DNA of 64,000 bases, from NCBI GenBank assembly GCA_030390025.1, contig CM059432.1:99450001-99514000 (forward strand), read 5' to 3'. The notes below the pieces were generated by a model that had not been told where the DNA came from, made no database searches, and worked only from the letters and a program-made list of their open reading frames with translations. Position numbers and translations under genes: made by a program. Positions within the stretch are counted from its first letter, which is position 1. Each line of letters starts with the position of its first letter. The stretch is from Squalus acanthias (Eukaryota). Of the stretch, positions 1 through 63,419 are shown piece after piece.

Positions 1-4
1 TCAG

Positions 5-37630: not shown

Positions 37631-38840
37631 CTGGGCAACTGTTGCTCTTGCTCTGCACACGTCATGCCGGTTTTCTGCTGGGTGACCCAAATAAATGCCA
37701 CTATCTCCCCACCTGCAACGGTTGCTCTGCTGCTGCTGGCTGTTATGCAACATATTACCGCTCTTCTGTGGCTTGCTCATTTTCCAAATCTATGGTAAGA
37801 TGGATATGGATAGCAATATTGTACAATATTCAGAAAATCTTGCAGACCTTCTATGGGAAACATTGTAAGCCCCTATCCTCCCTTAACAGCTCAAGCATCC
37901 AAAGCTTTAAATTCAAAATATCTACACAGTGCACCCTTATGCCTCACTGCAGCTGTTCACTGCTTGTATAAGGAGTTTGTGCAAATATATCATCAATTAT
38001 GATTGCAGCACAGAGCCTACTTCTCTGAGGAGCTAGACCTCCATTGTTCCTTCGTTTTTAACAGGCTGTGGCATGCTGGAAAACATTATAACACAGATAC
38101 TCCCTCACTCCCAGCACACACCATGCGCCGGATAGACACAACATCTGTGAGGTGTGCGGCATCTGTGAAGGCTACACGTCACCCAGATTTTCTGCCCTGG
38201 GGGATTATCTGCCTGCGCAGGCCCATCCCCCCAAAAGGGCCTTGTGCTGGGAACAGGTCAGAAACACGACCACAGCTATTGGCCTCGGTTCCTTTTGGAT
38301 GCTTCTGGAGATCCTGCTGAAACAACAAAAAGAATAACTTGTCATCAGTTTCCTTTTTAGGGTTGCCCCCAAACCACTGAAAGTCCACCACCAGCATTTT
38401 GTGCTGCTCCTGCATTTGGGCACCACATGGATGGATTTACAGAAAAATAGATGAGGGGTGCAGGAACGTTCTCTCCTGCATTCATTAGCATCAGCTTCCT
38501 GGGACTGTACCAATTGGAGGTACAGGATAGTTATGCCCACATAGATAAGGCCTGGAAAGCCAGGGCATCGTAGTGTGGGTAGAGGCCTGACATGACAGGT
38601 CTTTGCCCCCTTTTCGGCATCCGGGAATTGAATGTGCTTTCCCTGGGAAGCATGGATTGAGATGAGAGTCTAAATTTTGCTTGGCCCATCAGAAACCTCC
38701 AGCATGTCATTAATATGTAGGATGGGTTAATGGCCAGAACACATTGAAACCCTGCAAGTTTTCCTTGATCAGCTAGCACTCTTCCATCACAGCCTTTCTG
38801 TTGAAACTGAGTCGACTCAGGAATTGCTCTTCAACCATGT

Positions 38841-41800
38841 TGTAAAGTTCGCAATTATCGCGATTCAAAATAACATAAGAGAAGCAGATTCGTTTGATCA
38901 GTTTTATTAAACGAAATGCTGTCCTGATAATAAAGGACACAGAAGCCTGTAAAATGGCCGCCGCGCATCGTGGCAGCAGCTTCCAGAAACACAGTGGGCA
39001 GACAAGATGGAGTCGAATATACATTCAGTATAAGATTGGATCATAACAACAGAAAACGCTGGAAAAACTCAGCAGGCGAGGCAACATCTGTGGAGAGAGA
39101 AACAGAGTTAACATTTCAGGTCGAAACCCTTCGTCGGAACTGAAAGAGCAAGAAATAAACAGATAAAAATGCAAGGGGGAGGCTGGGGGGAGGAATAAAA
39201 GAACAAAAGGGATGGTCTTTAGTGAGTAGAGACATTAAGAGATGCTCAAGGCAAGACGAGATGGTAATGGGACAGGTTGAGAAACAAAAGGTAAGGTGTG
39301 AAATGCTGACAGAATCAGAGACAGCTGCCGTGGGGGGAGAGAGAGAAAAAAAGGAAAAAGGCACGGACCAAACGAGTGGATAAAATGTGTACATATGTGG
39401 TAGGGGCCGGGGTTATGATCTGAAATTGTTGAACTCGATATTGAGTCCGGAAGGCTGTAAAGTGCCTAAACGGAAGATGAGGTGCTGTTCTTGGAGCTTA
39501 CGCTGCGCTTCCGTGGAACAATGCAAGAGGCTGAGGACGGTGAGGTCTGAGTGAGCGTGGAGGGGTGAATTAAAATGACAAGCGACCGGAAACTCGGGGT
39601 CACCCTTCCGGACTGAACGGAGGTGTTCTGCAAAGCGGTCACCCAATCTGCGTTTGGTCTCCCCAATGTAGAGGAGACCACATCGTGAGCAGCGAATACA
39701 GTATACTAGATTGCAAGAAGTACAAGTAAATCGCTGTTTCACCTGAAGGGGTGTTTCCCCTTCCAGGTGAAACAGCGATTTACTTGTACTTCTTGCAATC
39801 TAGTATACTGTATTCGCTGCTCACGATGTGGTCTCCTCTACATTGGGGAGACCAAACGCAGATTGGGTGACCGCTTTGCGGAACACCTCCGTTCAGTCCG
39901 GAAGGGTGACCCCGAGCTTCCGGTCGCTTGTCATTTTAATTCACCCCTCCACGCTCACTCAGACCTCACCGTCCTCGGCCTCTTGCATTGTTCCACGGAA
40001 GCGCAGCGTAAGCTCCAGGAACAGCACCCTCATCTTCCGTTTAGGCACTTTACAGCCTTCCGGACTCAATATCGAGTTCAACAATTTCAGATCATAACCC
40101 CGGCTCCTACCACATATGTACACATTTTATCCACTCTTTTGGTCCGTGCCTTTTTCCTTTTTTTCTCTCTCTCCCCCCACAGCAGCTGTCTCTGATTCTG
40201 CCAGCATTTCACACCTTACCTTTTGTTTCTCAACCTGTCCCATTACCATCTCGTCTTGCCTTGAGCATCTCTCAATGTCTCTACTCACTAAAGACCATCC
40301 CTTTTGTTCTTTTATTCCTCCCCCCAGCCTCCCGCTTGCATTTTTATCTGTTTATTTCTTGCTCTCTCAGTTCCGACGAAGGGTTTCGACCTGAAACGTT
40401 AACTTTGTTTCTCTCTCCACGGATGTTGCCTCGCCTGCTGAGTTTTTCCAGCGTTTTCTGTTCTTATTTCGGATTTCCAGCATCCGCAGTATTTTGCTAT
40501 CGTAAGATTGGATCATACTTGGTAAACATTGATAAAGACAGGATGCAACCCGTTTGCATTGTGAACAATAGCAATGATATAAGTGCTGGAATCGTTTTCC
40601 TATGCACAGTAAGGATCATTGTACTGAGCAATCGAAGGCCCATCCAGACACATCAATACACAAATACCCCCCTGGCTCTACAATGAGAGAGACATCGACG
40701 GGTGATTAAGCAAGTATTCGGGGGGCCCCAAAACCAGTCAGGGAGACGATTCATACACATCCTGGCTGGGTCAACAATGGGGAAAACATTAACGGATAGT
40801 TGGCCAGTTTCAGGTGCTACCGAAACCCGTTAAAGAAGATAATCGCCCCATGCTGGGAGTTTTGAGCGCCAATATTACACAAAGGACAAACATTAAGATT
40901 TGAGCGGGAGATAAGCCGGCACATCACTATAACTATAGAGAACAAATGTCCATCGCCCTCTTGATTCGACTCTTGTCTCTCTGGTATCGCTTTCCTGGAC
41001 GGTCAGCCTCTTGTTTTTCTCTCTGGACTTTGTTGACTCTTGACTCTTAGCCGTACTGGTCGGTTATTCGAGTGTTGGGTGGAGCTCAATCGGGACAAGC
41101 CGCCCCGACAAGGGCAAGTAACAGGGTACACCATCCCGAGTGTCGGTAAACGGTGTCTGGACCCGGAGGCCCGAGGAGACGAGACGAGAAGAAGACGAGA
41201 AGAAGACGAGAAGAAATTCCACGTGCCACCATGGTCAGTAAACCCCGAACGGGGCCGAAAATATAAATACAGGACTCTTCTTTGAGTTCTACCGACTACA
41301 ACCTGTGTCGAGCACAGGAAGACTCTTCTTTGAACTGTGTCCGAGGTCCGTCGAGTTCTTCATGACAACAGAGAGTCTGGCCTGTTTTTTGCAGCAGCGA
41401 AAGTAAACAAGTGGGGTGCAGAGACCCTTCCAGGCACATGACAGTCAGGCGCTGCAGCGAAACGAGCTGAGTGCCTCACTTTAAAATCTCCGAAGTAAAA
41501 CGAGTGGTGAGCATGATTTCCGATCCTACAAATCTAGACGTAGTGTAGGTATTGATAAGGGAGGGTGGTTTTAATAAGGTTAAGATATAATGTGTTCCCC
41601 TTTCTACGATGTGCCGTGTGTTCTCCATTTCCATAGACCAAGCTTTATGAATGTATGTATACTTGTACTATCTTTGATTTGCGCCTATGACATGTATTTC
41701 ATGATTTTAGACGCCATGCAATAAAGATTTCCATTTCGTACTATTCAACCGGGTCTATTTGAGTTTTTCTCTGCATTACTGCTCCCTGCACCTAAGTCCA

Positions 41801-41943
41801 GTGTTAGAACCGTAAGGGCGAGTGGGTCGAACCACTCACAGGTGCTTATTGCAAAAAGGTTGGCCGGAGACCAGAGCAAGCAATAGTATAGGCAACGAAG
41901 GCCTAACCTCACACCAGCACCGTCTGAGACACGCCCCCTTAGA
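38841..41943 (+). repeat. 5' LTR (interrupted by Penelope palindrome 39046-40502)
   Basis: Aligns with 52126-53745 (4 differences in the first 205 bp). TATA-like tataaa at ~41263 and AATAAA at ~41720. Ends ttaga versus ttaca in the 3' LTR. Confidence 0.93.
39046..40502. mobile_element. Head-to-head inverted pair of Penelope-like 3' fragments (GIY-YIG plus tail), ~700-bp arms
   Basis: KQRFTCTSCNLVYCIRCSRCGLLYIGETKRRLGDRFAEH on both strands. Centre aagggg-tgttt-cccctt. 15-bp TSD taagattggatcata (39031-39045, 40503-40517). Confidence 0.92.
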
Positions 41944-41947
41944 GAAA

Positions 41948-43745
41948 ATGGCGACCGCGGCAGTGCACTGGCAGCAGGAGAGTAATGTTTTAGACCCTGG
42001 TTTGAATAGGCGAAATGTGATGGATGAGAGGGTAGCCGACTATGTGTTTGGGAAGGTTAACTTAACCAAAAAGTGGATAAGTGACCTACTGATGGATAAG
42101 CGTCCACTAGACGTCGCCATCAAATGGACAGGCAGTAAAGATCATAAGAAGTCGGTAGAGAAAGCGGTCTGGCTGATGTGCTACAAGAAGCAAGTCCAAC
42201 TTTCGGACCAGGTCATTGCAGCACAGGCAGCTCAGATCAGGGAATTGGAAGTTGAGATGGAGGAAAAGGTCACGGGAGGACAGAAACTCATTGCATCATT
42301 GAATGCGTTACATCAGGAATGACAAATAGTAGCCAACCACCATGAGGCTAAAATTGATTACCTAGAATGTCAGGTCACGGAAGCAAAATTAAACGAGGGT
42401 AGGATTAGAGAACGGTGTGTCCGCCTAGCTAACCAGATAAAAGCCCAGGAAGAAAGCTTGAAGGGAGTTAGGGCGGCATACAAGATGGCCCTCGAGGATA
42501 GGCATGAGGGAGCTGACCACAGTGTTTGCCAGAGGGAGATAGAGAACCTAAGAGAGTCCCTGAGTAAGGCAAACGGCTTGGTGTGTCTCATCAGCCCGTC
42601 AGCGAGCCAGCCACAGGTGGGTAGGGAATTCCCAAAATCACTACCGGAAAAAGCAGAAGTGGTATCTGCCACTATACCCTCCGCGCCACCCAGCTATTCG
42701 GCAACCTGGGTAAGGGAGGAAGTGGTGGAAATAGAGAAGAAGGTTCCCGAGGTAGGACAATCCCCGGAGGTAGTGTCGAGACCGGGACCGATGTGTCCGC
42801 TCCGAGGTCACAAGAGAGGCCCGAATGGGAACAATGGGGAAGACGGAGATGTCTTGAACCAGCTTGTATTGCCCCACAGCTCACACCAGCTGAGAGCAAT
42901 GATTAGCCATGTACGGAAGCTGTCCGAGTCAGATGACCCTTCCGTACATTTTAGGCAAGTAGAACAGACCGCAGCAATTAATGGCTGCGACGACGAGGAA
43001 AAGACCAAAATGTTGCTGTTCTCCTTAGATAGCTCGATCCTTCAGTGTCTCTCCGACGAGAGCAAGAAGGGAAATAAAACCTATGGGGAGTTACGGGACG
43101 AGGTCCTAGAAGTGTTAGGGGCGGATGATGAAGGCCCGTTCGTCAGATTGAGTCAAACCATACAGATGGAGGGAGAACCCCCGAAGGTTTTCGCCGACAG
43201 ACTGGCCAGTATACCAGCGTAGCTGCCCAGCTGCGCCAGCGCGCACCTATCTGGACGGCGCCGGGAAAGCTCATTGGCTCAGGTGTCTAGTAGCCAACAG
43301 CTTGCCAGCCGTCAGGGAGCAGGCCAGAGCGTGGTTTGATCCCACTAACCCCGCCACAACGGAGGAATCTGTCCTGAATCGACTCACCATAGGGTATTGG
43401 AACACTAGGAGCACGGGAGCGCGTCCCCTTAAGGGAAAGGTGCATGAAGCAAAGCCCGCAGCTCCGGCTCAGAAAGAGTGGCATCAGGAGGGAAATCGCG
43501 CCCCACAAACCAGTAGTGTTTGTTACGGGTGCGGGAAGACAGGTCACTGGCGTAAAAGCTGTAGGAATCCCTGGAAGGATTCCAGGGAAAAAGCTCCCGC
43601 AGTCCGAACCCAAGCGCCTGTCTCTGAGAAAGGAACTGGTGTGCCTATCCCTCCCGACGCGATAGAATCAATGTTAGGAGCCATGCGGTCTCTTATGACC
43701 TCACACGGGGAGGTAGCAACAGCCCCATACAACCCAGGCTTCTGA
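41948..43745 (+). pseudogene. gag: gag (coiled-coil N-region, capsid MHR-like motif, CCHC zinc knuckle); one in-frame stop at 42320-42322 and a frameshift at ~43200
   Basis: Kozak-context aaaATGG. ORFs 41822 and 42458 share a frame. QMEGEPPKVFADRL is MHR-like; CYGCGKTGHWRKSC is the knuckle. Confidence 0.85.
41949..41963 (+). promoter_or_regulatory. Primer-binding site, complementary to the 3' end of tRNA-Arg(UCG)
   Basis: TGGCGACCGCGGCAG just downstream of the 5' LTR. Vertebrate tRNA-Arg-TCG ends ...CCTGCCGCGGTCG-CCA (from memory). Confidence 0.8.
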
Positions 43746-44855
43746 CTGGAACCGGCGCAGCCTGCCTACCTGTGTCCCCTTGAAAGACACGCACAGGAGG
43801 GGGCCTCCTGTAAGGAGGCCAGGTTAAAAGAGCAGGCCTTGCGGGAGGAGAACGCCCGCTTAATGGGGAAAGTAGACGGGCTAGAAGGGCAGCTTAGAGA
43901 GCAGGCCTTACGGGAGGAGAACGCCCGCTTAATGGGGAAAATAGACGGGCTAGAAGGGCAGCTTAGAGACATAAAAGCAGCCTACAGGGTAGCCAGGAGC
44001 AGAGAGTATGAGGTTTTAAACCATGGGCCCTGTGAGGAAAGGTTAAAGGGTCTGACCCAAGCCCTATCCAAAGCCAGAGGGATGGTTTGCTCAACAACCC
44101 CGGGGGAATTCACCACCCCGCAGTTGCAAGCCATGGTAGCAGAGTTGCCCAAACTAAAACAGAATAGAAATCTTCAGGCTCCAGCAGGCGAGATTACACA
44201 GAAGGCACAAGCAGGGGCGGTGGCCTGTCTTAGGGGAGGGGCCAGACCTGCAAGTGGGGACTCTCAGCCCCGGGTAGAACCGCAGGGCACACAGGCCGGT
44301 AAAGCAGCCTGCGTGAGGGGAGAAGATATTTTGGAAACGTGTAGGATCTTTTCTTGGTCTTGGGATTCAGATGAGGAAGAGCTCGGAGAGCTCGACCAAG
44401 GTAGTGACCCGGTCGGAGAGGTGGTGGGGTCGGAGGACGGAGGTTCCGCCCTCGACCCAAGCATAGGGGAGATAGGGATTGCGAGTGGAGTTCCACTTAC
44501 TGGGGAAACAAGTAGGGTGGAGTCGGAAACCACAGATCCCGAGCCCAGGGGGGCGGAGCCAGGGGAGACAGAGCCGGCGTCTGTGGTGGGACCACAGGCC
44601 GTGACGGTGGAAGTCCCGGTTCCCGGTCCGTCGGTCCTGGAGATCTTGCCCAAGGTAGCCCTCCGTAGGTCAAGTCGGACACCCCAGCCCAGGAAGCTGT
44701 GGTCAAATCCCTCGTACACCCCCAGGCGTAAGTTCAAGGCAGCCCAGGGAGATCCCAGTCCCAGCTCAGCAACGACAGGCTGCGGCAGATCAAAGGCAGG
44801 GGTCAGTGCCCCCGCGCCACTGGGAAAAGCTCGTGGCAGCCTTCGCAGAATTTAG
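43746..44855 (+). CDS. ORF2 in the pol position, in frame after the gag TGA: diverged Gag coiled-coil copy plus acidic/Pro-rich and basic tail; no PR/RT/RH/IN motifs
   Basis: Frame is open from TGA-CTG to TAG at 44855. Ungapped similarity to gag (KAAYRVA..HGPC..LSKARGMVC versus RAAYKMA..HSVC..LSKANGLVC). Confidence 0.65.
   Translation: MEPAQPAYLCPLERHAQEGASCKEARLKEQALREENARLMGKVDGLEGQLREQALREENARLMGKIDGLEGQLRDIKAAYRVARSREYEVLNHGPCEERLKGLTQALSKARGMVCSTTPGEFTTPQLQAMVAELPKLKQNRNLQAPAGEITQKAQAGAVACLRGGARPASGDSQPRVEPQGTQAGKAACVRGEDILETCRIFSWSWDSDEEELGELDQGSDPVGEVVGSEDGGSALDPSIGEIGIASGVPLTGETSRVESETTDPEPRGAEPGETEPASVVGPQAVTVEVPVPGPSVLEILPKVALRRSSRTPQPRKLWSNPSYTPRRKFKAAQGDPSPSSATTGCGRSKAGVSAPAPLGKARGSLRRI
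43829..43969 (+). repeat. 69-bp in-frame tandem duplication (23 aa x2)
   Basis: EQALREENARLMGK(V/I)DGLEGQLR occurs twice. Confidence 0.9.
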
Positions 44856-45274
44856 GTAGGCCGCCCTGGGAACGGGCGGCGCTGTACAGTTAAGTTTAGG
44901 ATAAGTTTAAGTTTATAGGGGTAGAAATTAGGTCGCGCCCCATTTGGGGCGCAAATATCGTCCGAGCGCAAATATTAGCGCCTGGCGCTAATTATCGGCA
45001 CTGACAGGAAACTTCACTTTTACCGCCCCGGGAGGTGAGTGGAGCGCTAAATTAGGCGCTGCACACCTCTCTTAAGGCGCAAAGGCCTAGGAGTGAGGCG
45101 CTACCTCAGCGCACGAGCGCAGCGCAGCTGCTGCCAGTTAGCGAGGGAACACAGACACACTGGCGCCAGACACTTCTTAAAGCGGGGGGGGCCACTTGCT
45201 CTCCAGCCACACCCTGCTCATTGCAGCCTTGAATCTCAGCCTGGAGAGACCTGTAATCCATTTTGCTGCCAAGC

Positions 45275-47205
45275 ATGGAGAGGGTGAGAGAACGCGCTCA
45301 TCGCTTCACCGAGCGGGCCTTGGATGCTCTGGTTGACGCAGTGGAGCGCAGACGATGCATGCTGTTCCCGGAGAGTGGCAGGAGGCCTTTGCCACGCGAG
45401 TTCAGAAGAGTGTGGAGGGAGGTGGCTCAGAGCGTCTCCTCCAGGAGCATGGTGCCCAGGACCCATGTTCAGTGCCGCAAAAAGTTCAACGACCTCACTC
45501 GGGTCGTCAGGGTGAGTGGCTTTTTCTCAATACCTCTCCATCCCTCCATCTCAACCTCACTCTATGGCCAGAGGGTCTTAAAACCCCAATGCACAACACT
45601 CATCCAACACCTATGGCCCTTTCATCAAACACACACACACATTCCACACTTTGCATACAGTAAGGGCTATTCACCTATGGGAGGCACATCAGGCAAGACC
45701 ATGGCTGTATACAGTAAGGGCTATTCACCTATGGGAGGCACATCAGGCAAGACCATGGCTGTATATTGTAAGGGCTATTCACCTATGGGAGGCACATCAG
45801 GCAAGACCATGGCTGTATATTGTAAGGGCTATTCACCTATGGGAGGCACATCAGGCAAGACCATGGCTGTATATTTACTCAGATGCTGTCCTTTTTCTTG
45901 CAGGCTAAGCTGGCTCATAATCGGAGACAGCAGCAACGGACGGGTGGAGGGCGGCTTCAGCTGCAACCCCTCAGCGATCTGGAGGAGCGCGTCCACAGGA
46001 TTGTGGCAAGCCGGGTGATCGGTCCCGTCGCCACTGGGGACGCCGACCCCGTTGTGGACAGCAATGGTAAGGTCATCACCTTTTTGTCCTCTGTCCTTCC
46101 ACTTGTCCCTCACAATACCAGCCTTTGACACTTTCAATCCAACTTGCTAACTCGCTGCACTTATTCCTCCCTTACTGCCACCCTGTCCTCACGCTAAAGC
46201 CACTCTTGTACCTCCCTGCTTTCAGATGGTGATTCACCAGCTGAGGAGACGGGCCCTGAAGCTGCCACTGGGAGTGATGCTGCAGCTGAGGAGGAAGAGG
46301 AAGCCGGAGCATCAGTGCCACCCTCTCCCGAGGAAGCCCATGGCCACACTGGGAACACGCCTTCCCCGGAGGGGAGCAGGGGGGAAGGGGCTGATGATGG
46401 TGAGGCTCCAGGACCCAGCGGGCTGCAGCAACGCCATGGGGGGGGGAGGGAAGAACGGGAGCCTTCTCCCCAGAGGGAGAGTATGCCAGACACTCCTACT
46501 GCAATGGACGCAGAGGAGGAGCGGCTGATTGCAGAAATGAACAGCCAGGCGGTGGGCATGCACACTGAGCTCATGGGTGCAGTGGGAAGGGTGCCCGAAT
46601 GCATTGAGGCAATGGCAAGGAGTGTGGAGCACTTCGCTGTAGCACAGGCGGATGCCACACTAAAGCTTAGTGCTGCAATTCAGTCACTGGCTGCCAGGAA
46701 CCCATCTGAGACTGCTCTCATGCAGACTCAGATTGAGGCCACGCGAGCACTGACTGCTGCCATCCTCGATGGTTCGTGCACATGTCCCCGGGGCTGTCAC
46801 CGCGCCGCAGCAGGCCAGCAATCTGTTCTCCGGCAAATTGCTCCGGATGCTGAAGTGCTGCCCCGTGGGAGTGCCAGTGTGTCGGGCGAGCAGGGAGTTG
46901 CTGTCCTCTCTCACGATGACAGCATTCCTGCTGCCAACACTGTCACTTCTCCACTGCACTTGCCACCGCCTGTAGGACAGACTGCTGCCGCCCATGCAGA
47001 GTTGGTGCAGTCTGCAGCCGGGCCCTCCAGGCCCAGAAGTGGTCGAGGCCGTCCTTCAGGGGCATCTGCAGTGTCAGGGTCTGACGAGCAGCAGCCTTCC
47101 ACCAGCCTTGCTGCAGCCACTGAGGTCCCATTACGGAGGAGCAGTAGGGTTAGAAGAGGGGAAGTGCGCAAGGGAAGGAGATCACCCTCGAAGGGCAAAA
47201 AGTAG
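45275..47205 (+). CDS. Harbinger Myb/SANT-like protein, 3 exons (45275-45511, 45904-46066, 46226-47205), predicted 459 aa
   Basis: RFTERALDALVDAV...WREVAQSV...RTHVQCRKKFNDL Myb-like domain. GT-AG introns in phases 0 and 1 keep the frame open. Confidence 0.85.
45656..45873 (+). repeat. 54-bp minisatellite x4 in intron 1 of the Myb gene
   Basis: taagggctattcacctatgggaggcacatcaggcaagaccatggctgtata at 45661, 45715, 45769 and 45823. Confidence 0.95.
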
Positions 47206-47499
47206 GAGGTGTGCCAAAATGCTGGTCATTTTTTTATTAAAGGCCGAGGTTCATGGCCCAACTTTTGTTTAGTGTTTTGGACATTATCTCCAGGTTGTGA
47301 GAACCAGTTATGTTATTGACTGTTTTTTTGTGTTTATTTCTATGAGTTTGTCATGAGGAATTGACACACACAGAGTTTGTAAAATAAATAAGTTTCTGTA
47401 TTCAAAATATACATGGCTGGTGGTTGGAATTATTGGTGCCTTGGCCGGCTTAGGGGTTGCGTGCTGGGTTGATTCGTGTTTGTAGCAATGGCAGGGGCC

Positions 47500-48660
47500 C
47501 TAGAAGCGGCTTGCTATTAGTCGTTGACGGACGGCCCTTGCAGTTTGACCATTGTGGGCCGCCCTCCTGCCTTGGTGCTGCTGATGATCATCGTCCTCGT
47601 CCTGTTCCTCCTCTTCCTCCTCCTCCTCTGGTGGTGCTGCAAGGCCTGGTGGCATTGGCTGGGTCCTGAGGATTGCCATGTTGTGCAACATGCAGCACAC
47701 GACTACGAACTTCGAAACTTGCTCAGGCGAGTACTGCAGGGCTCCTCCGGAATGGTCCAGACAGCGGAACCGTTGTTTCAGCACGCCGATTGTGCGCTCA
47801 ATAATGTTCCTGGTTGCTTGATGGCTTTCCTGGTACCGCAGCTCAGCAGGGGTGTTTGGCGTACGGAGCGGTGTCATCAGCCAGGTGCTCAATGCGTACC
47901 CCTTGTCCCCCAGAAGCCAACCAACTGGCTGATGCGGTGCCTCGAAAAGTTCTGCCACAGTAGTCTGGCGCAGGATGAAAGCATCGTGGCAGCTGCCCGG
48001 ATAGTGGGCATTGACAGCGAGAATCACCTGTCTGTGGTCACAGACCAACTGCACATTCAAGGAATGGAACCCCTTTCTGTTCCTGAATTCCTCTGCATTC
48101 TCTCGCGGAGCACGCAAAGCCACATGCGTGCAGTCAATGGCGCCCTGCACCATGGGGAAGCCCGCTACCCTCGCAAAGCCCATAGCACGGTCATGCTGCT
48201 TGTCTGGGGTCATAGGGAAAGAGATGAAGTCTCGTCTCCTTCTGAAGAGGGCATTGGTGACCTGCCGGATGCAGCGATGCACCGCAAACTGGGAGATATT
48301 GGCGAGGTCCCCAACAGCAGCTTGGAATGAGCCAGTGGCGTAGAAGTTCAAAGCCACTGTGACCTTCACTGTCACCGACAGAGACGTCCTGGACCTCAGC
48401 TGAGGCTGCAGATCTGGCTGCAGCAGGTGGCAGAGCTCAGTGACCACCTCCTTGCTGAATCGCAGCCTTCGCAAACACAGCTCCTCGGACATATGGATGT
48501 AGGAGAGCTGTTCACGATATACCCTGGGAGGGTAAGCTCTCCTGTACATGCGCCTGATGGCCCTCCTCCGTCTGGCCATCATTGCCACTCTCTGTCTGCG
48601 TCTCACTATCCTCCGATTCAGCTGGAGCAGGACGACGCCCCCAATCATTGCAGCCCCCAT
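47500..48660 (-). CDS. Harbinger DDE transposase, 386 aa, intact (copy B)
   Basis: Same DDE motifs as copy A; about a dozen aa differences. Confidence 0.95.
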   Translation of the reverse strand: MGAAMIGGVVLLQLNRRIVRRRQRVAMMARRRRAIRRMYRRAYPPRVYREQLSYIHMSEELCLRRLRFSKEVVTELCHLLQPDLQPQLRSRTSLSVTVKVTVALNFYATGSFQAAVGDLANISQFAVHRCIRQVTNALFRRRRDFISFPMTPDKQHDRAMGFARVAGFPMVQGAIDCTHVALRAPRENAEEFRNRKGFHSLNVQLVCDHRQVILAVNAHYPGSCHDAFILRQTTVAELFEAPHQPVGWLLGDKGYALSTWLMTPLRTPNTPAELRYQESHQATRNIIERTIGVLKQRFRCLDHSGGALQYSPEQVSKFVVVCCMLHNMAILRTQPMPPGLAAPPEEEEEEEEQDEDDDHQQHQGRRAAHNGQTARAVRQRLIASRF

Positions 48661-49382
48661 ATTCTCTTTGCCAGAAAAGTAATGAGATACAGCAACTAAA
48701 GTAGCAACAAAGTTAGGATGAACTAGGCCAAACTACCTCACAAAGCGTTGAGTCAATGTAGAAGTCTCTCTCTCTCTCTCTCCGAATCTCTCTCTCTCTC
48801 TCAGAACGAGTGGTGCATAAATGTCGACCACAGAAAAAGACAGGAAGAGGCCCCCTTTAAATAGCGCCCCCACCAGCCCCACACCGATTGATAACATTCC
48901 AGTCTTCCGGTCGTTGGAAGCGCCAGGCGGTAAGGCAGGGGGCGCCACTCAATTTCCGCTCCGGGGCGCCCCAAGGGCATTGCACCATGGAATGACGTCA
49001 CAATCTGCGCGCGCAGGTGGTCGCAGCGGTAAGTTTTAGCGCCGCCGCACAATCTCAAGTTAAGTTCTCGAGCGGCGCAAACAGCGCTGCGCCCGGGCGT
49101 TAGCGGCTTAACGCCCCATTAGCGCCCTCTTAAGGCGCTAACGGGAGGCGCAACCAAGTGAATTTTTACCCCATAGTGTTTTAAGTTTGGTAAGTTTGTA
49201 GTTTAATTTTAAAAGTAAATGGTAAAATGATGGGAGTTAGTGATAGGAATAGTTAAAGTCTATCCAGCATACATGTCTTTGTATGTGAGACAAGGTCAAG
49301 GGACCCGCTCACCCTTCACAAAAGCCAGAGACTCTTGGGAGGCTGGCTACATCATTTTATCTGATCACAGGAACCAGGAGAG

Positions 49383-51735
49383 ATGGAAAGGATTCTGATA
49401 GTCCTCGCAACGATCGGATATGGATTGGCCTATCGGGGCCTCACCAAGGATGTCGTTGTGTTCGGTTGCTCCGGGGACACGGCCCCCATCGCGACGGATG
49501 GGACCGGGGAGCGAAGTGCTGAGGAAACCACCACTTATTTCCACAAGGGAAGGTGGCTGGGATGGCTGGGAATGAATTCAATGGAATACTCCAGCGCATC
49601 CGGATTTGCCTGCAAAGAGACTTCTTTACTGTCTCCCAGGGTGAGGATCATTGCACCCAGAATCAGCGTCACAGTCGGCAAAAGGATTTATTTGACGTGC
49701 AATGGGAAGGTCCCATTGAGCCGATGATGGTGGTTATGGAAGTTAAGCAAGACTATGAGAAATTCCTCGGTCGAGTGGGAACGATTGGGTAACAATACCC
49801 ATCGGACAATTACGGGGACTAACGGACAAGTGAAAGTCTGTTGGGACAAATGGTGGGAACCGGATGAGGGAATATATGTTTGTATGTGGGGATCGAAGTA
49901 CGTTTGCCCCAAGGGTATATCCATATTTCTCCTACAACAGTGGCAGGATGCCGGGAAAGGGATGAGGTGGGACGTCAGCACTCGGGGGTGCGGAGCTCCA
50001 TTCTCCCCGATCCCGGTAAACGCCACTGAACTCATCACGCGCCCACGCAAGTCTCCTCCCACGATTCCGGTGGCTTTGGCTCAGGAGGAAGGGTGCCCTA
50101 AAACCACTAAGGGGCCCGGGAATGGTCTGGTACTGGTGCCAACAGATCAGATACTGTATCAGGGGGTACATTACGCGGTGGCCTCGGTGATTCTAAATCT
50201 CACCGAGGTGCACTTACCAGAGTGGTGCCCCAAAGAAACGGAACAATTGTACCAGGTCCTGTTAACAAACATGTTCAGGCAATTTTATGAGTTTGATTTT
50301 GCAGAGGTTGACAAAACAAGCTTATACACCACACCACACAAAGTTTTGGGTCAGGTGGGGAGACAAAGAAGGGGTATTGTGAACGATGTGTTCACTGCTT
50401 TTAATACGGGAACATCTGTGGTCAACGCTCTAGACAATGTGGAGCTGCAGACCCAGATCAACGGTTTAAAAACACAGTTAAAAAGCATCCTCACAAACGA
50501 GAACAAGGTAGTAGGGTCTGAGTTACATGAGGACCAGGCCATGACACTACACTTAAAAGAGATTATAGCAGAGCTGGAGAAGCATGCGAGAACGGTAAAT
50601 GCCCTGATCAGGGAAGATCGAAATGCATCCGATCAAGCTGCACAGAACGAGGTGTACGTACCATATGGGGCGTGGTTACTGGGCGAGGGCCGCAGTAATT
50701 TGGAGGATTTAAAACAAGGTTTGGTCCCGTCCTGGATAAGTAACAAACACCTGCAGGCGCTCCACCCTTTTCAGAACGCATTAAGCCCGTGCCAGCTCAG
50801 GCTAGCCTCAGAGGCATACCCAGTCCCAGTGGACTGCGGATGGTCAAATCATACTATCATGGGGATAGTAGTATGGATGCCGGTGTTGGGCGACACAGCA
50901 AAGCCCGCCCCAGTGTACCAGGTGGAGAACATTGGTGTCATTCAGTGGGGAGCCCACATTCGCTACGCAGCGGTCCCCACCTTACGTCATCCACTGGGAG
51001 CAAACGATGACAGGTACCGACCTCTCGGGTTGTCGTGGCCGGGGAGCACACATCATCCTGTGTCCCCAGCACTTCAATGCCTTTTTAACACCACAATGCG
51101 GGTTCAGAACGGCTGGCGCGAAGCCCATGAATTGCACCATGGAAGCAATGACACAAGATCATGTGCCCCCACAGGCGGCATACATAGGGGGTGGAACGTA
51201 TTGCGTTACCACTGCAGCGCAACACTACCAGCATGGACAGCACAGCCGGTGTCCGGTGAGTGACAGCAGTTTCTGTTTTAAACCCAGGGCTGAAGTTCAA
51301 GTGGCACAACAGCGAATTGTCCCGATCCCTGAACCATCCACTGTTCACCTCACAGTAAAAGAGAATTTCACAGACTTGCAGCGATTTGTCGCACATTTCG
51401 GGTACATCATTCCCCCTCTCCCTGAACACCTCACCAAGATTTTAAAAGCCGTCATGGTATCACAGAAACATTTTTACACCCTGGAGCAAAAGACTGTAGA
51501 GATAGGGGCAGAGATATTGGACAAAGTAATCCCACCGTGGTGGGATCTGTTCACTAATATTGAAGTCCCGTCCTGGATCAGGATAGCCTCCCACATTTTA
51601 GTAGTGTGTCAAGTTGTAATTGTAGTGTACCTATTGGTCGTACACTGCAAAAGAGGCAAACGCCTCACAAGGCAGGAGTACACAGGGGAGTGGAGAGAAC
51701 GTTACGTGCGCGTGAATGAGGAAAGTACCACGTAA
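49383..51735 (+). pseudogene. env: env: signal peptide, Ig-like domain, furin site RQRR, fusion peptide/heptad repeat, Cys-rich region, TM; in-frame stop at 49725-49727 and frameshift at ~50977
   Basis: MERILIVLATIGYGLA signal. ORFs 49383 and 49755 share a frame. RQRR/GIVNDVFTAF at 50361-50372; TM ILVVCQVVIVVYLLVV followed by KRGKR. Confidence 0.88.
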
Positions 51736-52116
51736 ATGGCCAGGATGACGCCGCTCCATTTTACCATGTGTGTTTTTGTAGTTGTTGTTAGTTATGAGTA
51801 TGTGTAACTAAGTTTGGAACTTTTGTATTTTTAAAATAGTTGGTTTGATTATTTTTCCTTTTACAATAAAACATGCATATACAGGTGGTGCGAGAGGCAT
51901 CGGCCTTTTGCACCTGGAAGGCATATACGCAGTGTAAGTTTAAAGGCAATGCTGCCTACGATTTGTCCAAGATAGACAATGTGTTTTCTCTGGGAAATGA
52001 GGACTGCATGGAGGCCCTAGATAGTTTAATTACCGGGAATGTTTGGATGTGGAGAATGGGGATAATTTGCTCACCAGCATTTAATTGATACGATAAGCGG
52101 AGTTATTCGCATCAAC

Positions 52117-52124
52117 AGGAGGGA
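52117..52124 (+). promoter_or_regulatory. Polypurine tract
   Basis: aggaggga immediately before the TG of the 3' LTR. Confidence 0.65.
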
Positions 52125-52125
52125 C

Positions 52126-53745
52126 TGTAAAGTTCGCAATTATCGCGATTCAAAATAACATAAGAGAAGCAGATTCGTTTGATCAGTTTTATTAAACGAA
52201 ATGATGTCCTGATAATAAAGGACACAGAAGCCTGTAAAATGGCCGCCGTGCATTGTGGCAGAAGCTTCCAGAAACACAGTGGGCAGACAAGATGGAGTCG
52301 AATATACATTCAGTATAAGATTGGATCATACTCGGTAAACATTGATAAAGACAGGATGCAACCCATTTGCATTGTGAACAATAGCAATGATATAAGTGCT
52401 GGAATCGTTTTCCTATGCACAGTAAGGATCGTTGTACTGAGCAATCGAAGGCCCATCCAGACACATCAATACACAAATACCCCCCCGGCTCTACAATGAG
52501 AGAGACATCGACGGGTGATTAAGCAAGTATTTGGGGGGCACCAAAACTAGTCAGGGAGACGATTCATACACATCCTGGCTGGGTCAACAATGGGGAAAAC
52601 ATTAACGGATAGTTGGCCAGTTTCAGGTGCTACCGAAACCCGTTAAAGAAGATAATCGCCCCATGCTGGGAGTTTTGAGCGCCAATATTACACAAAGGAC
52701 AAGCATTAAGATTTGAGCAGGAGATAAGCGGACACATCACTATAACTATAGAGAACAAAGGTCCATCGCCCTCTTGATTCGACTCTTATCTCTCTGGTAT
52801 CGCTTTCCTGGACGGTCAGCCTCTTGTTTTTCTCTCTGGACTTTGTTGACTCTTGACACTTAGCCGTACTGGTTGGTTATTCGAGTGTTGGGTGGAGCTC
52901 AATCGGGACAAGCCGCCCCGACAAGGGCAAGTAACAGGGTACACCATCCCAAGTGTCGGTAAACGGTGTCTGGACCCGGAGGCCCGAGGAGACGAGACGA
53001 GAAGAAGACGAGAAGAAAATCCACGTGCCGTCACGGTCAGTAAACCCCGACCGCGCCCGAAAATATAAATACAGGACTCTTCTTTGAGTTCTACCGACTA
53101 CAACCTGTGTCGAGCACAGGAAGACTCTTCTTTGAACTGTGTCCGAAGTCCGTTGAGTTCTTCATGACAACAGAGAGTCTGGCCTGTTTTTTGCAGCAGC
53201 GAAAGTAAACAAGTGGGGTGCAGAGACCCTTCCAGGCACATGACAGTCAGGCGCTACAGCGAAACGAGCTGAGTGCCTCACTTTAAAATCTCCGAAATAA
53301 AACGAGTGGTGAGCATGATTTCCGATCCTACAAATCTAGACGTAGTGTAGGTATTGATAAGGGAGGGTGGTTTTAATAAGGTTAAGATATAATGTGTTCC
53401 CCTTTCTACGATGTGCCGTGTGTTCTCCATTTCCATAGACCAAGCTTTATGAATGTATGTATACTTGTATTATCTTTGATTTGCGCCTATGACATGTATT
53501 TCATGATTTTAGACGCCATGCAATAAAGATTTCCATTTCGTACTATTCAACCGGGTCTATTTGAGTTTTTCTCTGCATTACTGCTCCCTGCACCTAAGTC
53601 CAGTGTTAGAACCGTAAGGGCGAGTGGGTCGAACCACTCACAGGTGCTTATTGCAAAAAGGCTGGCCGGAGACCAGAGCAAGCAATAGTATAGGCAACGA
53701 AGGCCTAACCTCGCACCAGCACCGTCTGAGACACGCCCCCTTACA
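52126..53745 (+). repeat. 3' LTR (1620 bp)
   Basis: tgtaaag...ccttaca, followed by ATGT TSD. Confidence 0.95.
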
Positions 53746-55379
53746 ATGTGCAGGTAGCTAATTCTGTTGTGGTAAAGTAACACCATGGGGTACTACCTTT
53801 AATGTGTCATTGGACGTGAAATTGCCTTTGGTGATAGCGTGAATCAGGCAATAGCGAATCGGCAGTCCATTTTACACGATACTCGAATTTCTTTTTCACT
53901 GAAGCCTCTTTCAACAGTGGGCACAGTCCTCTGTATTATTCAGTTTTGTTTTGATATTTTGTAACCTTGCCCTTCAGTAAATGCACTCACTTCAGATCTC
54001 ATCTGGAATTTAACATTCCTTTTTCAATTTTTTCCTACCTTATATAATTCTCCATTAGTTTTTTTTATTGGTTTTAACAAAGCCTTAACAAGGAAATGGC
54101 TATTTGTACTTTCATTTTTCATCCTGCTAAACCTGTCAGTTCACAGAAAATCATTGAGGAAAGTCATTTTGCAGCAAGTTAGCCCTATAAAGTAGACATC
54201 CCACTTATCCATGTGCCGCTGAAGTAGCTTCTATTGTATATGTTTTTTTGAAGAGAACTTAATAGTGTGGGACAAGACTACAATAAATGAAGTGAGTGAT
54301 TTCTTGCAAGTGGATTTGGAATGAAGCAATCTTTAGTGCAATCCATTGGGGCTTTCTACTGGAAGCGCACCACATATACCGATAATATTTTTTCTAAAAT
54401 GGTATACATGCCAGGATTGGAGCCCGAGCAATTTCAGGGCTCACATGTTATTTAGAAATAAAAGAACAGATAAAGGTGGAAATACACTGCAGGCCAGTCA
54501 GCATATGTAAAGTTTGTCAGAAGGATACATACCCAAAATGTCATAATCAGTCTTTTTTTCTTTACAATGCTGACTGACCTGCTGTGTACTTGCAGCTACA
54601 TCTATTTTTTATTTACAGCATTTGTAGTTTTTTCATCTTATTTTACCTATTCTTCAGACATGGCCCTGATTTTATCTCCAGTTGGATTCCCTGCTCAGGC
54701 CTGAGTTAAAATTACAGTCGGGTCTCAATTATGTCATCGGGCCGCAACATGCACATGTAAAGAAGGACCCAGTTGGCTTCAGGCATGTGTCCTTGCTGCC
54801 TACTTGGGAGAGCAGGTTAAAATTGCAGATGTTGCAATCATGGCAGCTTTCACACAGGTCGATTTTAACTGCCCAGCCACCAGGTTTCTGCTGAGCAAGT
54901 AAGTTGTGAAATCCAACTTTGGTAGGGGTGCAGAATGGATGGTAGTAGATAGGCCGCCCTTTATAGTTTGACTTCAATGGAATTTAAAGCTACGTGGGTA
55001 TATAATGGGCGGCCTGTCAGCTAACGTCCATTTTGCGCCACTGCTGAAGTTGAATTTCAGCTCCCTAATCTCGTAATCCAATTAACAATGGTATTTATAT
55101 TGGGAAAAGAAAATGGTTTGGAGAAATTGATAATGATTTAGTCTTATTCAAAATACATCTGGGCTGGAGGAGCACAGTAAAGTAAATGGTTAAATTGTGT
55201 GCAGAAAAGCTGAGCAATCTTGTTTGTGGCATAAATTATTAACCTTTAGATATTTTGCCCATTTTTGGACAAGGGAATCATATTTGGCCCTTGATATTTC
55301 AACAATAAATAAAAATACATAACTACTCTGTAAGAAAAGACTGATGGGATAAAATAAGATACATTTACATCCAAGATAA

Positions 55380-57030
55380 CATTCCTCATCTCCTCTGGAG
55401 AGCTTCCCTCCACAGCCGCCAACCTCATAGTCCCCCAACCCCGCACAGCCCGTTTCTACCTCCTTCCCAAGATCCACAAACAGGACTGCCCTGGTAGACC
55501 CATCGTTTTAGCCCGTTCTTGCCCCATGGAACTGATTTCTTCCTATCGCGACTCTATTGTATCCCCCCTTGTCCAGTCTCTTCCCACCTACATCCGCGAC
55601 TCTTCCGACGCCCTCTGCCAATTTATGGGTTTCCAGTTTCCTGGCCCAACCGTCTCTTATCACTATGGACGTCCAATCCCTCTACACCTCCATCCCCCAC
55701 GAGGGCAGCCTGAGGGTGCTCCGCTTCTTCCTTGAACAGAGGCCCAACCAGTCCCCATCCACCACCACCCTCCTTCGCCCGGCTGAACTTGTTCTCACAT
55801 TGGACAACTTCTCCTTTGACTCCACTCACTTCCTCCAAATTAAAGGTGTTGCTATGGGAACCCGCATGGGTCCTAGCTATGCCTGCCTTTTCATGGAATA
55901 TGTGGAACATTCTTTGTTCCAGTCCTACTCAGGTCCCTTCCCTCACCTCTTTTTCCGGTACAATGATGACTGTATCGGTGCAGTTTCCTGCTCTCATGCT
56001 GAACTAGAAAATTTCATTCACTTTGCTTCCAATTTGCACCCTTCCCTCACCTTCACATGGTCCATCTCCGACTCTTCCGTTCCCTTCCTTGACTTCTCTG
56101 TCACCATTTCTGGGGATAAGCTATCGACAAACATCCATTATAAGCCCACTGACTCCCACAGCCACTTGGACTACAATTCCTTCCACCCTTCTTCCTGTAA
56201 GGACTCTATTCCATTCTCCCAGTTTCCCCGTCTCTGTCGCATCTATTTTGACGACGCCACCTTCCATACTAGTGCTTCCGATATGTCTTCCTTTTTCCTC
56301 AACCGAGGATCCCCCTCTACCGTGGCTAACATGGCCCTCAACTGTGTCTGTTTCATTTCCCGCACTTCTGCTCTCACCCCTTCCCCTCCCTCCCAGAACC
56401 ATGATAGGATTCCCCTTGTCCTCACCTTTCACCCACCAGCCTCCACATTCAACGGATCATCCTCCGCCATTTCTGCCACCTCCAGCGTGATCCCACCACC
56501 AACACATCTTCCCCTCACCTCCCCTTTCAGCATTCCGAAGGGAATGTTCCCTCCGAGACACCCTGGTCCACTCCTCAATCAGCCTCAACATCCCCTCCCC
56601 TTCCCACGGTACCTTCCCGTGCAAGCGCAGAAGATGTAACACCTGCCCTTTTATCTGCTCCCTTCCCACTGTCCAGGGCCCCAAACACTCTTTCCAGGTG
56701 AAACAGCGATTTACTTGTACTTCTTGCAATTTAGTATACTGTATTCGCTGCTCACGATGCGGTCTCCTCTACATTGGGGAGACCAAATGCAGATTGGGTG
56801 ACCACTTTGCAGAACACCTCCATTCAGTCCGTAAGCGTAATCCCAAGCTTCCGGTCGCCTGTCACTTTAATTCTCTGCTCCACTCCCACTCTGAGCTCCC
56901 TGTCCTCGGCCTCTTACACTGTTCCAATGAAGCTCAACGCAAGCTTGAGGAACAGCATCTCATCTTTCAATTAGGCACTTTACAGCCTTCTGGGCTCAAC
57001 ATCGAGCTCAACAATTTCAGACCATAACCT
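55380..57030 (+). pseudogene. Penelope-like element RT plus GIY-YIG endonuclease, frameshifted
   Basis: FYLLPKIHK...GRPIV, TMDVQSLYTSIP, GVAMGTRMGPSYA, FRYNDD, PFLDFSV, LVYCIRCSRCGLLYIGET. Confidence 0.92.
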
Positions 57031-57192
57031 CAGCTTGTACCTGATATTTTCTTTTCGAAAGGAAGACAAAATCCTGAATAACTTACTTTTTGCAATGAAC
57101 AGAAGCCAACTTATCAAATGACGGGATGCTTGCCTTGATTTCCCGACATTTATGCTGTCGTTCAATATCTTGTTCAGGGGTAACAACAGTCT

Positions 57193-60100
57193 GACCTAGA
57201 AATTGGATATGGCCCGAAAACGTGTGGTGTCGTGGCCCAGCGCCATTTAGCTGCGCTGGGTCAAAGTGATCTAGGTAGCACGCAGAATTCGTGCTGAGTG
57301 CTCATTTACATGATTATAGTGCTGATCTCAGTGCTAAAACTGCTGCTCATTGGCTTACCACTCAACAGGTGGGCCAATATCAGGCTCAGTCTAATTTTAA
57401 ATCATGTTTAGCCTTGGCTTTCTCCACTACTTAAACAGGAGGCTCTTGGATGCAGCAGCACCTCATTGTCATTCTATTTGGAGCTCCACGTGGAATTAGT
57501 AGTAACTTGCAAGAGATGACTGAGCAGCAGCAGAGGGAAAGAGCTAAATGGTTCTCAGATGCGGCTCTGGAGGCACTGGTGGTGGCCGTGGAGAGGAGGT
57601 GGGCTGTCCTCTTCCCAAAGGGTGGCAGGAAGCCATCGGCTCATACGTCTAGAAGGCTCTGGCAGGAGATGTCTGCATACGTGGGCGGCCAGTACGGTGG
57701 CCCCCAGATCATTGATACAGTTTAACATAAGAAGTTTGATGACCTCACACAGCAGGTCAAAGTGAGTGAAGGCTTCAGCAAATGCCACATCCCACCATCA
57801 GCACCGCAAGTCTCACAAACCGCTCAATTCACCACACCCCCAGCACTCACCTTACCAACAATCTCTACCTATCAGCACTCAGACATCACAATCATGACTT
57901 CATTTCACCCTCACAACCTTACCACTGCTGCAACACTCACACCCACATCTCACACCTTGCACACACTGACAGCTATTCAACTATGACAGGCACAACACCC
58001 AAACACATTGCACCACACTCACTGACACACTTCCCTTTCTCTTGCAAGTTAAGGTCATTCACAATCGCTGGGAGCAGTGGTAGACAGGTGGGGGCAAGCA
58101 GCAATACAGGTCCTGAGCCAACCGAAGGAGAGAGTGCTGGACATCATTGGAAGGGAAGCCATCGAGGCCGTGGCAACAGGCGAGGATGAAACTTTTGGGG
58201 ACAACAATGGTACGCTCATTCCTAATCCTTCTTCTCACATCTCACTTCCCCCTCATCCCACAATCTCTTCTGACTTACAAGCTGCTGATGCTGTATGCAT
58301 GCATATCTTGCTTCCCCCCTCCCCTCCCCTCACTATAACCTGACTCTTGTGCTTTTCTGCTTTCAGATAACCAAGAACTGCCAGCCACAGAGCCTGTCCC
58401 CAAGGCGATGGAGGAAAATGAAGGCAGCACAGCGTCACTGCATCTGACACTCGCAGGCACCAGCTCAGAAACTGGCACTGCGTGAACTTTAGAGGCTAGT
58501 ATCGAGGCGGGATCTGCACAAGGTGAGGCACCGGGCACGAGTGGGCTGCAGCAATGCCAGGGGCTAGGGTAGCTCGGGGGTCAGCTCCCTGGAGGGATAG
58601 TTCGCGCATGAGTTCTGCTGCACACGACTCAGTCGAGGACCTTGATGCGGCGGCCTTCAGAAGAAGGGTGATGTGCATACACATTGAATTGCTAGGTGCA
58701 ATGGCAAGCCTGCCAGAGAGCCTCTCGGCAATGTCAAGGAGCATGGAGGAGTCCGCTTCCAACATTTCACAGGGCTTTGTGCAGAGCTTGGAGCCCAGGA
58801 TTTCCAGGTTGGAAATGATGGACAGCTCCAGGAGTGACTGTGTCAACGCAGCCATGATGGTGCGTGTGATGGGCGATGTCGCAGCTGCCCTTGTAGCACA
58901 AGCGGAAGCAACCCAACATCTTAGTGCAGCACTGGAAGCGCAGACCACTCTCCTCCAGTCTCAGCTTGCTGCCACCCAACCTCAGACTGCTGCCAACGTA
59001 CCTGGATTTACCAGTGTCAAACGGAGCTTTCAGGGTGTCGCAGCAGCCCAGCAATCTGTAGGAATGTTGACACACCGCCCCGGGGGAGTGGCAGTGGGTC
59101 TGTGGAGCAGGAAGCTGCTGTCCTCTTTCAGGATAGCAGCATTCCTATTATCCACTGCCACTCTGCCATTGCCCTTGCTGCTGCCTGTCAACCAGCCAGC
59201 CCGGACTGCTGCCGCCCATATCGGGCCTTCTAGGTCCAGAGCTGGTTGAGGTCGTCCTTCAAGGCCATCTGAATTCTCCCCATGGAAAATCAGCAGTCTT
59301 CCCCCATCCATGCCGCAGCCACTGGAGGAGCACTTTGTAGCAGCACTAGAGTAGGAAAGGGCACCCGAATAACAGGCACTAAGGGATTTCACAAGGGTGA
59401 TTAGTTGATATTGGCCAGAATTTTCATGCTGTCATATGTGCAGGATTGGAGGCGGGTTGGGAGTGAAAGTGGAAATAAATCGGTGCAGGTCAGGAACCCG
59501 CTGTCATCCCGCCTCCACACGCCTTTAACTTGGGCGCGTTTGCCAGCGCGGCAGTGACCCAAATGGCAGAGGCGGGCAACCCATTTTAGATCATTATTAA
59601 CTTGTTGTAACATCCTCAACCATCTTTTTAACCAGACCATTGCAATTTCACTGCATAACCATGGGAATCATGCAGCTCGGGAACCACATCTGTCAAGCTG
59701 AGGTGGAAGCTCAGAGGCCATTGATGCAGCTCATTAATGCACAGCATGGAAAGCACAATAAATACTGCCACCTGACACCTGCTTACTTTCCGAAGGGAAA
59801 TGTTGTTGCTGAGTGCATTTTCAGTGCAGATCTGGCTTTCTAGAGATGGCAACTGTTTTCAACAAATTCGGGAACCACTGTCACCTCATTACTACAACCT
59901 ATCACACCATTGACAGATTGCTTCTCTCATCTCTGCTTCACCTGCCATCTATTACATCAGCATGGGTGCCGTTTATACTGTCTCACCTTGGTCCTCAGAA
60001 TTGGACCACGATGAGCCCCAACACCAGGAGCAGCAGGCACACCAGCAGCAGTAACAACACCACCAATCTTCTCCTCAATGACCTGATGCTCCACAGGACA

Positions 60101-63100: not shown

Positions 63101-63419
63101 ATCCCTGCTGGCAAGGCTGCGCCTTCATGATGGCCGAGTTGTGGACCATGCAGTAGACCCACGAAATGGGACACCCGCTCTGGTGTGTACTGGAGGGCTC
63201 CTCCCGAGCAGTCAAGGCAGCGGAGCCATTGCTTCAGCAGCCCGATGGTCTGCTTGATGATGTTCCTGGTGGAAGCATGGCTAGCATTATATGACTGCTG
63301 GGCAGGTGTGTTGGGTTTGCGGAGGGGAGTCATGAGCCAGGTGTAGAGCGGATAGCTCTTGTCTCCGAGCAGCCACCCTCAAGTTTGACGTGGTGGCTGG
63401 AGGATTGCTGGAACACCAG
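57193..63419. mobile_element. Degenerate Harbinger (Myb partner + at ~57516-59400; transposase - at ~62950-63419) split by a nested Harbinger
   Basis: TIR-like gacctagaaatt. ERAKWFSDAALEALVVAVERR; minus-strand [26 protein letters not shown]...GGALQY. Confidence 0.8.
59413..62773. mobile_element. Nested degenerate full-length Harbinger (transposase + ~59960-61170; Myb partner - ~61500-62480)
   Basis: Perfect 12-bp TIR ggccagaatttt / aaaattctggcc with [34 protein letters not shown]. Confidence 0.9.

Follow-up and report, generated by a model that had tools for sequence, protein, structure and literature searches.

The window analysed here, 64,000 nucleotides of the Squalus acanthias contig CM059432.1, contains a 14.9-kb endogenous retrovirus (ERV). 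It is very probably one, now dead, of the many copies of a pol-less form of an early-branching retrovirus, in which pol has been replaced in frame by a cassette (X) homologous to the Gag coiled coil, which has an envelope (Env) predicted to be of the paramyxovirus fusion protein (F) type, and which likely spread by co-packaging with pol-bearing relatives. This reading is carried by the anatomy of the element, many independent insertions flanked by target site duplications (TSDs), the existence of pol-bearing relatives, mosaic gag and env genes, and the occurrence of the same cassette in three families. Spread by borrowed enzymes is likely, because the enzyme gene has been replaced by a short cassette.

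As envisaged, a transcript from the long terminal repeat (LTR) would give Gag and, by read-through at UGA-CUR, a Gag-X-tail protein in place of Gag-Pol. Pol-bearing relatives would be co-packaged, their enzymes copying and integrating the satellite RNA, with the helper reverse transcriptase (RT) priming on tRNA-Arg and the helper integrase (IN) generating the 4-bp TSD. Template switching between co-packaged RNAs would mix gag and env, and the same process may have carried the cassette at short microhomologies from one family (B) into the family of the window element (A) and a third (C). Env would employ an immunoglobulin (Ig) head for attachment and an F body for fusion, with family-wide selection for reinfection being probable.

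An earlier note on this DNA had reported that no protease (PR), RT, RNase H (RH) or IN motif is present between the LTRs; tblastn with the 1437-residue Pol of a relative found none of these in the element, and Pfam searches of 13 of its frames found no pol enzyme domain, so confirming the claim. The relative's Pol matches only at its first ~12 residues and in its C-terminal tail (residues 1233–1437, 89% identical; Table 1). The description 'pol-less' is thus apt with respect to the enzyme domains, but pol has not simply been lost, cassette X having been put in its place: open reading frame 2 (ORF2), which is open in most copies, runs from ~12 residues of the Pol start through X to the Pol tail, in the read-through frame. 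A TGA-CTR context, which we take to belong to a read-through motif class, is common to the end of gag in the window and to the gag–pol junction of pol-bearing relatives, and read-through at the gag stop would be expected from it. X (~0.45 kb) shows 32% identity to the Gag of the element itself (E 1e-12) and 39% to the best Gag compared, and holds an in-frame 69-bp tandem repeat, with length variants 429/498/567. Contigs from four runs whose type was guessed, which cannot show transcription, cover gag, X, tail and env, one of them spanning the X–tail junction.

The proposal of a non-autonomous, helper-dependent element is supported by the rest of the genome, in which the pol-less form has replicated at many loci. 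An exact 21-mer at the pol-less X junction has 231 genome matches, those of family B included, and an exact pattern at the pol start has 1444, among which is at least one diverged relative and from which an intact pol does not follow; controls gave 0 in both cases, and the patterns recover 47 of 56 and 19 of 20 retrieved copies, respectively. Among the best 40 DNA matches to env, X takes the place of pol in 15, and pol is present in 25. The 17 pol-less copies with two LTRs lie at different loci, with Kimura two-parameter (K2P) LTR distances of 0.007–0.030; 14 pass an automatic TSD test and two more show a TSD on reading the flanks, giving 16 of 17 with their own TSD, the 5' end of the last being outside the retrieved stretch. 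A pol-containing helper was also found, i.e. the relative used above, which has the same LTR, gag and env together with PR, RT, tether, RH and IN, and mobilisation by such a helper may be presumed. That pol was instead deleted from a single provirus after insertion is scarcely credible: nothing beyond the single window favours it, whereas identical junctions recur at hundreds of loci whose TSDs differ. Nesting of related proviruses in one another is frequent, mostly in env or the LTR (L010, L021, L042, L061, L132, L156).

The cassette is not confined to family A. Of the lower-scoring X matches retrieved, 16 of 19 lie in family B, which is 50% identical to A in Gag and 70% in Env (protein), and 79% in pol (DNA), and has an unlike LTR of ~0.93 kb; X itself is 93% identical between them (p-distance 0.067). 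Matches to the family B tail (12 retrieved) divide evenly into six pol-bearing and six X-bearing copies. The last ~70 bp of the family A cassette are family B Pol tail, and a short microhomology joins them to the A tail. An origin of the cassette in B is therefore the most likely, with passage into A and C by template switching suggested by the junction sequences. Family C is represented by L160 (gag 76%, LTR ~72%), which has a TSD of its own and two LTRs that are 99.1% alike, and in which the first half of X is present with distinct junctions. Crossing of the same cassette between families with Gags 50% identical implies cross-family co-packaging.

The helper lineage and its envelope

The helper was placed using an RT and tether tree (29 rows, LG+G4, gypsy-type root, three loki rows), which follows a quick RT tree of 60/77 rows (near-duplicates dropped). 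Lokiretroviruses are recovered as sister to the retroviruses, as in the available text of PMC7947760. The helper falls on the retrovirus side (support 100/99) and groups there with the frog and coelacanth elements and a further unnamed one (94/95), perhaps beside snakehead retrovirus (SnRV; 68/43). Approximately unbiased (AU) tests reject a grouping of the helper with loki (p 6e-5) and of the helper and amphibian matches with loki (p 0.0015). SnRV is the closest reference RT (43% identity, compared with 33% for loki and up to 37% for foamy and gamma types), and the Pol is 41–45% identical to those of the frog and coelacanth elements. The helper RT also lies outside Metaviridae, and the dual RNase H (tether plus RH) of the helper is a feature common to all retroviruses. 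As judged from RT, the helper belongs among the true retroviruses, as an early branch that is loosely SnRV-like, and is not a lokiretrovirus.

The loki-like or gypsy-like assignment in the earlier note, i.e. to a lokiretrovirus or a gypsy-type (errantivirus-like) element, is therefore not upheld and appears very improbable. It would accommodate the Env family profile, which has loki Env as its best match (98%, E 2e-13), and the helper tether and IN, which are 40% and 36% identical to loki but 27% and 31% to SnRV. Set against this are the tree and the AU tests, though with three loki rows only, and the RT motif LPQG, in place of which every loki row read has C/L/MPFG. The IN tree, built with no CGIN1 row, favours neither placement. 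The frog and coelacanth Pol relatives (P0004, P0006, P0007) are annotated as 'NYNRIN-like' or 'Gypsy integrase-like', and mammalian CGIN1/NYNRIN may derive from the helper clade.

Env comprises a signal peptide, a probable Ig-like head, an F2-like part from residue ~238, a furin site (RQRR, 327–330), an F1-like subunit of ~450 residues and a transmembrane segment preceded by WWDLF. The furin site, long subunit, WWDLF and lack of a CX6CC motif had all been described previously and are confirmed here; neither CX6CC nor a short transmembrane subunit, both gamma-type features, is present in Env. An unbroken natural copy folded with 38 relatives gave a model with a mean predicted local distance difference test score (pLDDT) of 60.5 and a predicted template-modelling score (pTM) of 0.44, the core blocks being at 80–95. 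The top Foldseek matches in the PDB are paramyxo- and pneumovirus F proteins (E 5e-12, low TM-scores), and in the VIA-align ranking F proteins take first place and foamy Env the tenth, the values being Z 11.6, root-mean-square deviation (rmsd) 17.1 and 331 aligned for Newcastle disease virus F, and Z 8.4, rmsd 5.5 and 277 aligned for the foamy protein. A viral Foldseek library also returned Env of the walleye epsilonretrovirus (E 1.6e-9 and 6e-7) and of feline foamy virus, and foamy Env in the PDB was matched by sequence (E 3e-4). Env is thus predicted to be a paramyxovirus-F-type fusogen with a three-domain core (class Ib), as the earlier note had proposed.

By contrast, the label 'non-orthoretroviral' that the note gave to this envelope is misleading, because the Env family profile also matches Env of the walleye epsilonretrovirus (96%) and of SnRV (93.7%, E 2e-7, 343 columns), with 0.1% for a Pol control. 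Pairwise BLAST of Env and of Gag against SnRV gave no significant match. From its size and Gag we take the walleye virus (L163) to be walleye dermal sarcoma virus. The sequence used as SnRV (L065) is so identified since its RT matches that listed for SnRV in the PMC7947760 supplement, and the names of L118–120 likewise rest on RT rows in that supplement. The closest named relatives of Env are from a skate and a sawshark, in agreement with the note's proposal of a probable chondrichthyan genome. By profile match the body of SnRV Env (L065:6131-9535) is F-type, and by eye its N-terminus has Ig-like motifs; no statement to this effect was met in the literature searched. Among the Pol relatives, a frog gene model terminates with a signal peptide and a stretch like Ig-V. 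A weak V-set match is also seen in a distant Env (P0059); an Ig-headed Env may, on these sequences, be clade-wide. The gene models P0002, P0029 and P0030 join Env pieces to host exons (of a cadherin-related, a zinc-finger and an unnamed gene), and are probably annotation artefacts.

Gene exchange, selection and competing readings

Pol-less and pol-bearing copies draw on one env pool. The env tree (FastTree) shows 15 changes between the two labels, compared with 17.9 when they are shuffled; no column of the env alignment is diagnostic for either form; the nearest neighbour is pol-bearing for 15 of the 30 pol-less env rows; and the starred branches of the gag tree (FastTree) require at least six changes of form. 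Omega, computed on shared variants with a mutation-spectrum baseline, is similar in pol-less and pol-bearing copies for env F1 (0.27 and 0.35) and gag (0.47 and 0.53), and is 0.19 for pol; among pol-less copies the env F2 and head values are 0.21 and 0.50. For X it is 0.72 (not significant, p 0.17; 0.51 without the baseline) and for the Pol tail ~0.9 (0.90). The substitution patterns suggest that selection probably acts on env across the whole family, a conservation not creditable to the satellite because the pool is shared with pol-bearing copies.

Several points weigh against the overall reading. The Env model is of moderate quality, residues 1–232 being mostly below pLDDT 50 and the TM-scores of the model 0.2–0.3, and the Ig-like head at ~90–175, though probable, is predicted from weak if concordant signals (Pfam E 0.009–0.25, antibody matches E ~1, Atlas 0.88–0.89). 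A protein search for the Gag donor of X found no match at E<=0.001 among 461 candidates of 202–646 residues, and a search of the shark's own genome gave at least 150 X copies, with no donor among the matches listed. Family C is known from one copy. Poor resolution of the env tree, with three of 51 branches starred, means that the mixing there could partly be lack of signal, and gene conversion between integrated copies may itself be a source of the gag and env mosaics. Transcription, read-through, packaging and fusion all enter the scheme as steps deduced from the DNA. Finally, that all five kinds of right junction observed preserve the frame, and that X has no frameshifting deletion in 6184 codons (against 0.5–0.9 per 1000 in gag and pol, with insertions uncounted and env F2 also at 0), hints at more than a stuffer.

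The last point bears on whether X is a selected protein module, Gag-X co-assembling through an extra coiled coil and gaining a packaging or interference advantage that spread it to three families. This is doubtful, although it would be consistent with the homology of X to the Gag coiled coil, with the open ORF2, and with the maintenance of frame by the junctions and the 69-bp repeat variants, since omega is 0.72 for X (p 0.17) and 0.90 for the tail, the 13 X columns separating A from B fall 5/3/5 on codon positions 1/2/3, an open frame could be retained for the sake of the RNA, and joining at microhomologies tends to preserve frame. The role of a stuffer that keeps the frame is the most likely one for X, ahead of that of a protein under selection. 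Reliance of the pol-less form on its own Env, with Gag and Env acting in cis, reinfection, and Pol alone supplied in trans, is quite possible if not the favoured view. Env coverage is at least 85% in 30 of 38 pol-less family A copies, and the low env omega values hold among pol-less copies; however, the pool is common with pol-bearing copies of similar omega, and the signal may come from helper genomes at each recombination. A broader and more tentative idea is that of a portable pol-replacement cassette, hopping between divergent families by template switching to make satellites that donate Gag and Env and kept for a role of Gag-X in assembly, with the Ig-headed F-type Env, common to loki, snakehead, epsilon and foamy viruses, marking F as the ancestral retroviral envelope.

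Provirus anatomy and later insertions

The LTRs, primer binding site (PBS), polypurine tract (PPT), TSD, gag and env described in the earlier note are all present (Table 1).

Table 1. Features of the provirus, in window coordinates
Feature	Position	Strand	Remark
5' TSD	38837..38840	+	ATGT
5' LTR	38841..41943	+	1.62 kb plus later insertion
GIY-YIG (Penelope-like) fragment	39046..40502	.	palindromic; ~15-bp duplication; later insertion, not in 3' LTR
PBS	41949..41963	+	complementary to tRNA-Arg(TCG); overlaps gag start codon
gag	41948..43745	+	599 codons in unbroken copies
gag stop then CTG	43743..43748	+	TGA-CTR context
ORF2 in pol slot	43746..44855	+	369 codons, open
Cassette X	43782..44165	+	Gag coiled-coil homologue
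Family B Pol-tail piece	44166..44237	+	carried along with cassette
Own-family Pol tail	44238..44852	+	non-enzymatic
Harbinger DNA transposon	44918..49172	.	later insertion; Myb/SANT gene on +, DDE transposase on -
env	49383..51735	+	783 codons in unbroken copies
PPT	52114..52125	+	
3' LTR	52126..53745	+	
3' TSD	53746..53749	+	ATGT

The two LTRs differ by 35 substitutions in 1620 aligned bases (K2P 0.022). The note's figure of ~2% therefore stands, but its 'replicated recently' is relative, 2.2% corresponding to ~5 million years at the mammalian rate of PMC7947760 or ~50 million years at the shark rate assumed in PMC4422223. Hundreds of datable copies open satellite–helper dynamics to study in one genome. 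The window copy is dead, because gag (stop near 42320, frame change near 43200) and env (stop near 49725, frame change near 50975) each bear one stop and one frame change. The gag product has an N-terminal coiled coil, a capsid-like helical region and one CCHC knuckle; in its single-sequence fold (pLDDT 44.7) the usable part is the long N-terminal helices only.

Fifteen nucleotides of the PBS match the 3' end of genomic tRNA-Arg(TCG), and the PBS pattern recurs in this genome within a tandem array of tRNA genes, in which ARAGORN identifies tRNA-Arg(tcg). This array (L127; G000:C26:40521000-40524400) is long, with a 1623-bp unit carrying tRNA-Arg(TCG) and tRNA-Ser(GCT) genes. A second PBS version occurs in four of 17 pol-less copies and one pol-bearing copy (L012, L022, L024, L060, L003); presumably it matches another tRNA-Arg, which, if true, would mean primer switching.

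The two later insertions account for ~5.7 kb of the element, leaving ~9.2 kb, comparable to copy L001. The GIY-YIG fragment is a 1.4-kb near-perfect palindrome (97–98%), and a related single copy lies at 56683-57047. The Harbinger has a second copy, 98% identical, at window 1-3038; a related but shorter element lies at 5251-6145, and additional diverged Harbingers occur near 18500-21900 and 57800-63400. At one and the same site in the spacer that separates the Pol tail from env, an insertion is present in 13 of 61 scored family A copies (L007, L009, L018, L021, L027, L037, L043, L045, L046, L050, L051, L053, L054), in both orientations and including full-length Harbingers, short derivatives and one with different ends; three of these copies are on a single unplaced contig and may be one event. 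The pattern suggests a transposon hotspot, with site-specific Harbinger targeting this retrovirus.

Comparison with known systems

Pol-deleted gag–env elements have a precedent in chicken EAV-HP. Pairs of competent and defective ERVs differing by a swapped central segment include bovine ERVK[2-1-LTR] C/D, mouse MusD/ETn and KoRV/RecKoRV (PMC10924933, in its available part). As in the C/D pairs described there, the central segment has been exchanged for a piece of another retroelement with the flanks kept, complementation in trans is likely, though here deduced, and the forms recombine; the replaced segment, the independent integrations and recombination with a competent form are all found in the present family. 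Defective ERV partners usually lose coding capacity, whereas here the swap is limited to pol, with gag and env whole and the read-through frame open. Also unlike the C/D pairs, the same cassette is present in three families and the defective form is in the minority (231 versus 1444 motif matches).

SnRV has a tRNA-Arg primer, accessory genes and a spliced Env leader; a tRNA-Arg PBS is likewise observed here, and the present env comes with a start and a signal peptide of its own. The family resembles SnRV, the closest reference RT, in its in-frame gag-stop-pol arrangement, a coiled-coil Gag with one zinc knuckle and a homologous Env body, but differs in that no accessory frames were seen, Env is shorter, and there are closer Pol relatives in frog and coelacanth. 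SnRV-like ERVs have been described for a chimaera, together with a shark lineage I (PMC4422223, available text). The lokiretroviruses of PMC7947760, so far as its available text describes them, share the F-type Env, coiled-coil Gag and dual RNase H; by contrast, the present RT is outside the loki clade and Env has an extra head of ~240 residues. The same source reports loki in none of six chondrichthyan genomes. BHIKHARI is similarly non-autonomous and pol-less but has gag only (PMC12067270, in part).

With respect to the envelope, the predicted three-domain F core, furin cleavage and long post-cleavage subunit are as in the class Ib fusogens (paramyxo- and pneumovirus F, foamy Env) of PMC11468914. 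An N-terminal Ig-like domain seems to serve as the attachment module, unlike the inserted receptor-binding domain of foamy Env in that source, the available text of which classes orthoretroviral Env as class Ia and names neither snakehead nor loki. Wang and Han left open four scenarios for the origin of Env (PMC7947760, available text). That one profile links the Env of the helper lineage, loki, snakehead, walleye epsilon and foamy viruses favours an F-type ancestor, later replaced in the gamma/beta lineages, an idea that becomes testable with structure-based trees.

The literature searched, which did not extend to repeat libraries (Repbase/Dfam) or key subscription papers, holds no description of the family, of an F-type SnRV or epsilon Env, or of a shared pol-replacing cassette. 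Publications already cover ERVs that depend on a helper, and F-like Env in foamy viruses and loki; new here are the placement of the RT with clade tests, the mixing of genes between the two forms, and a pol-replacing cassette shared across families.

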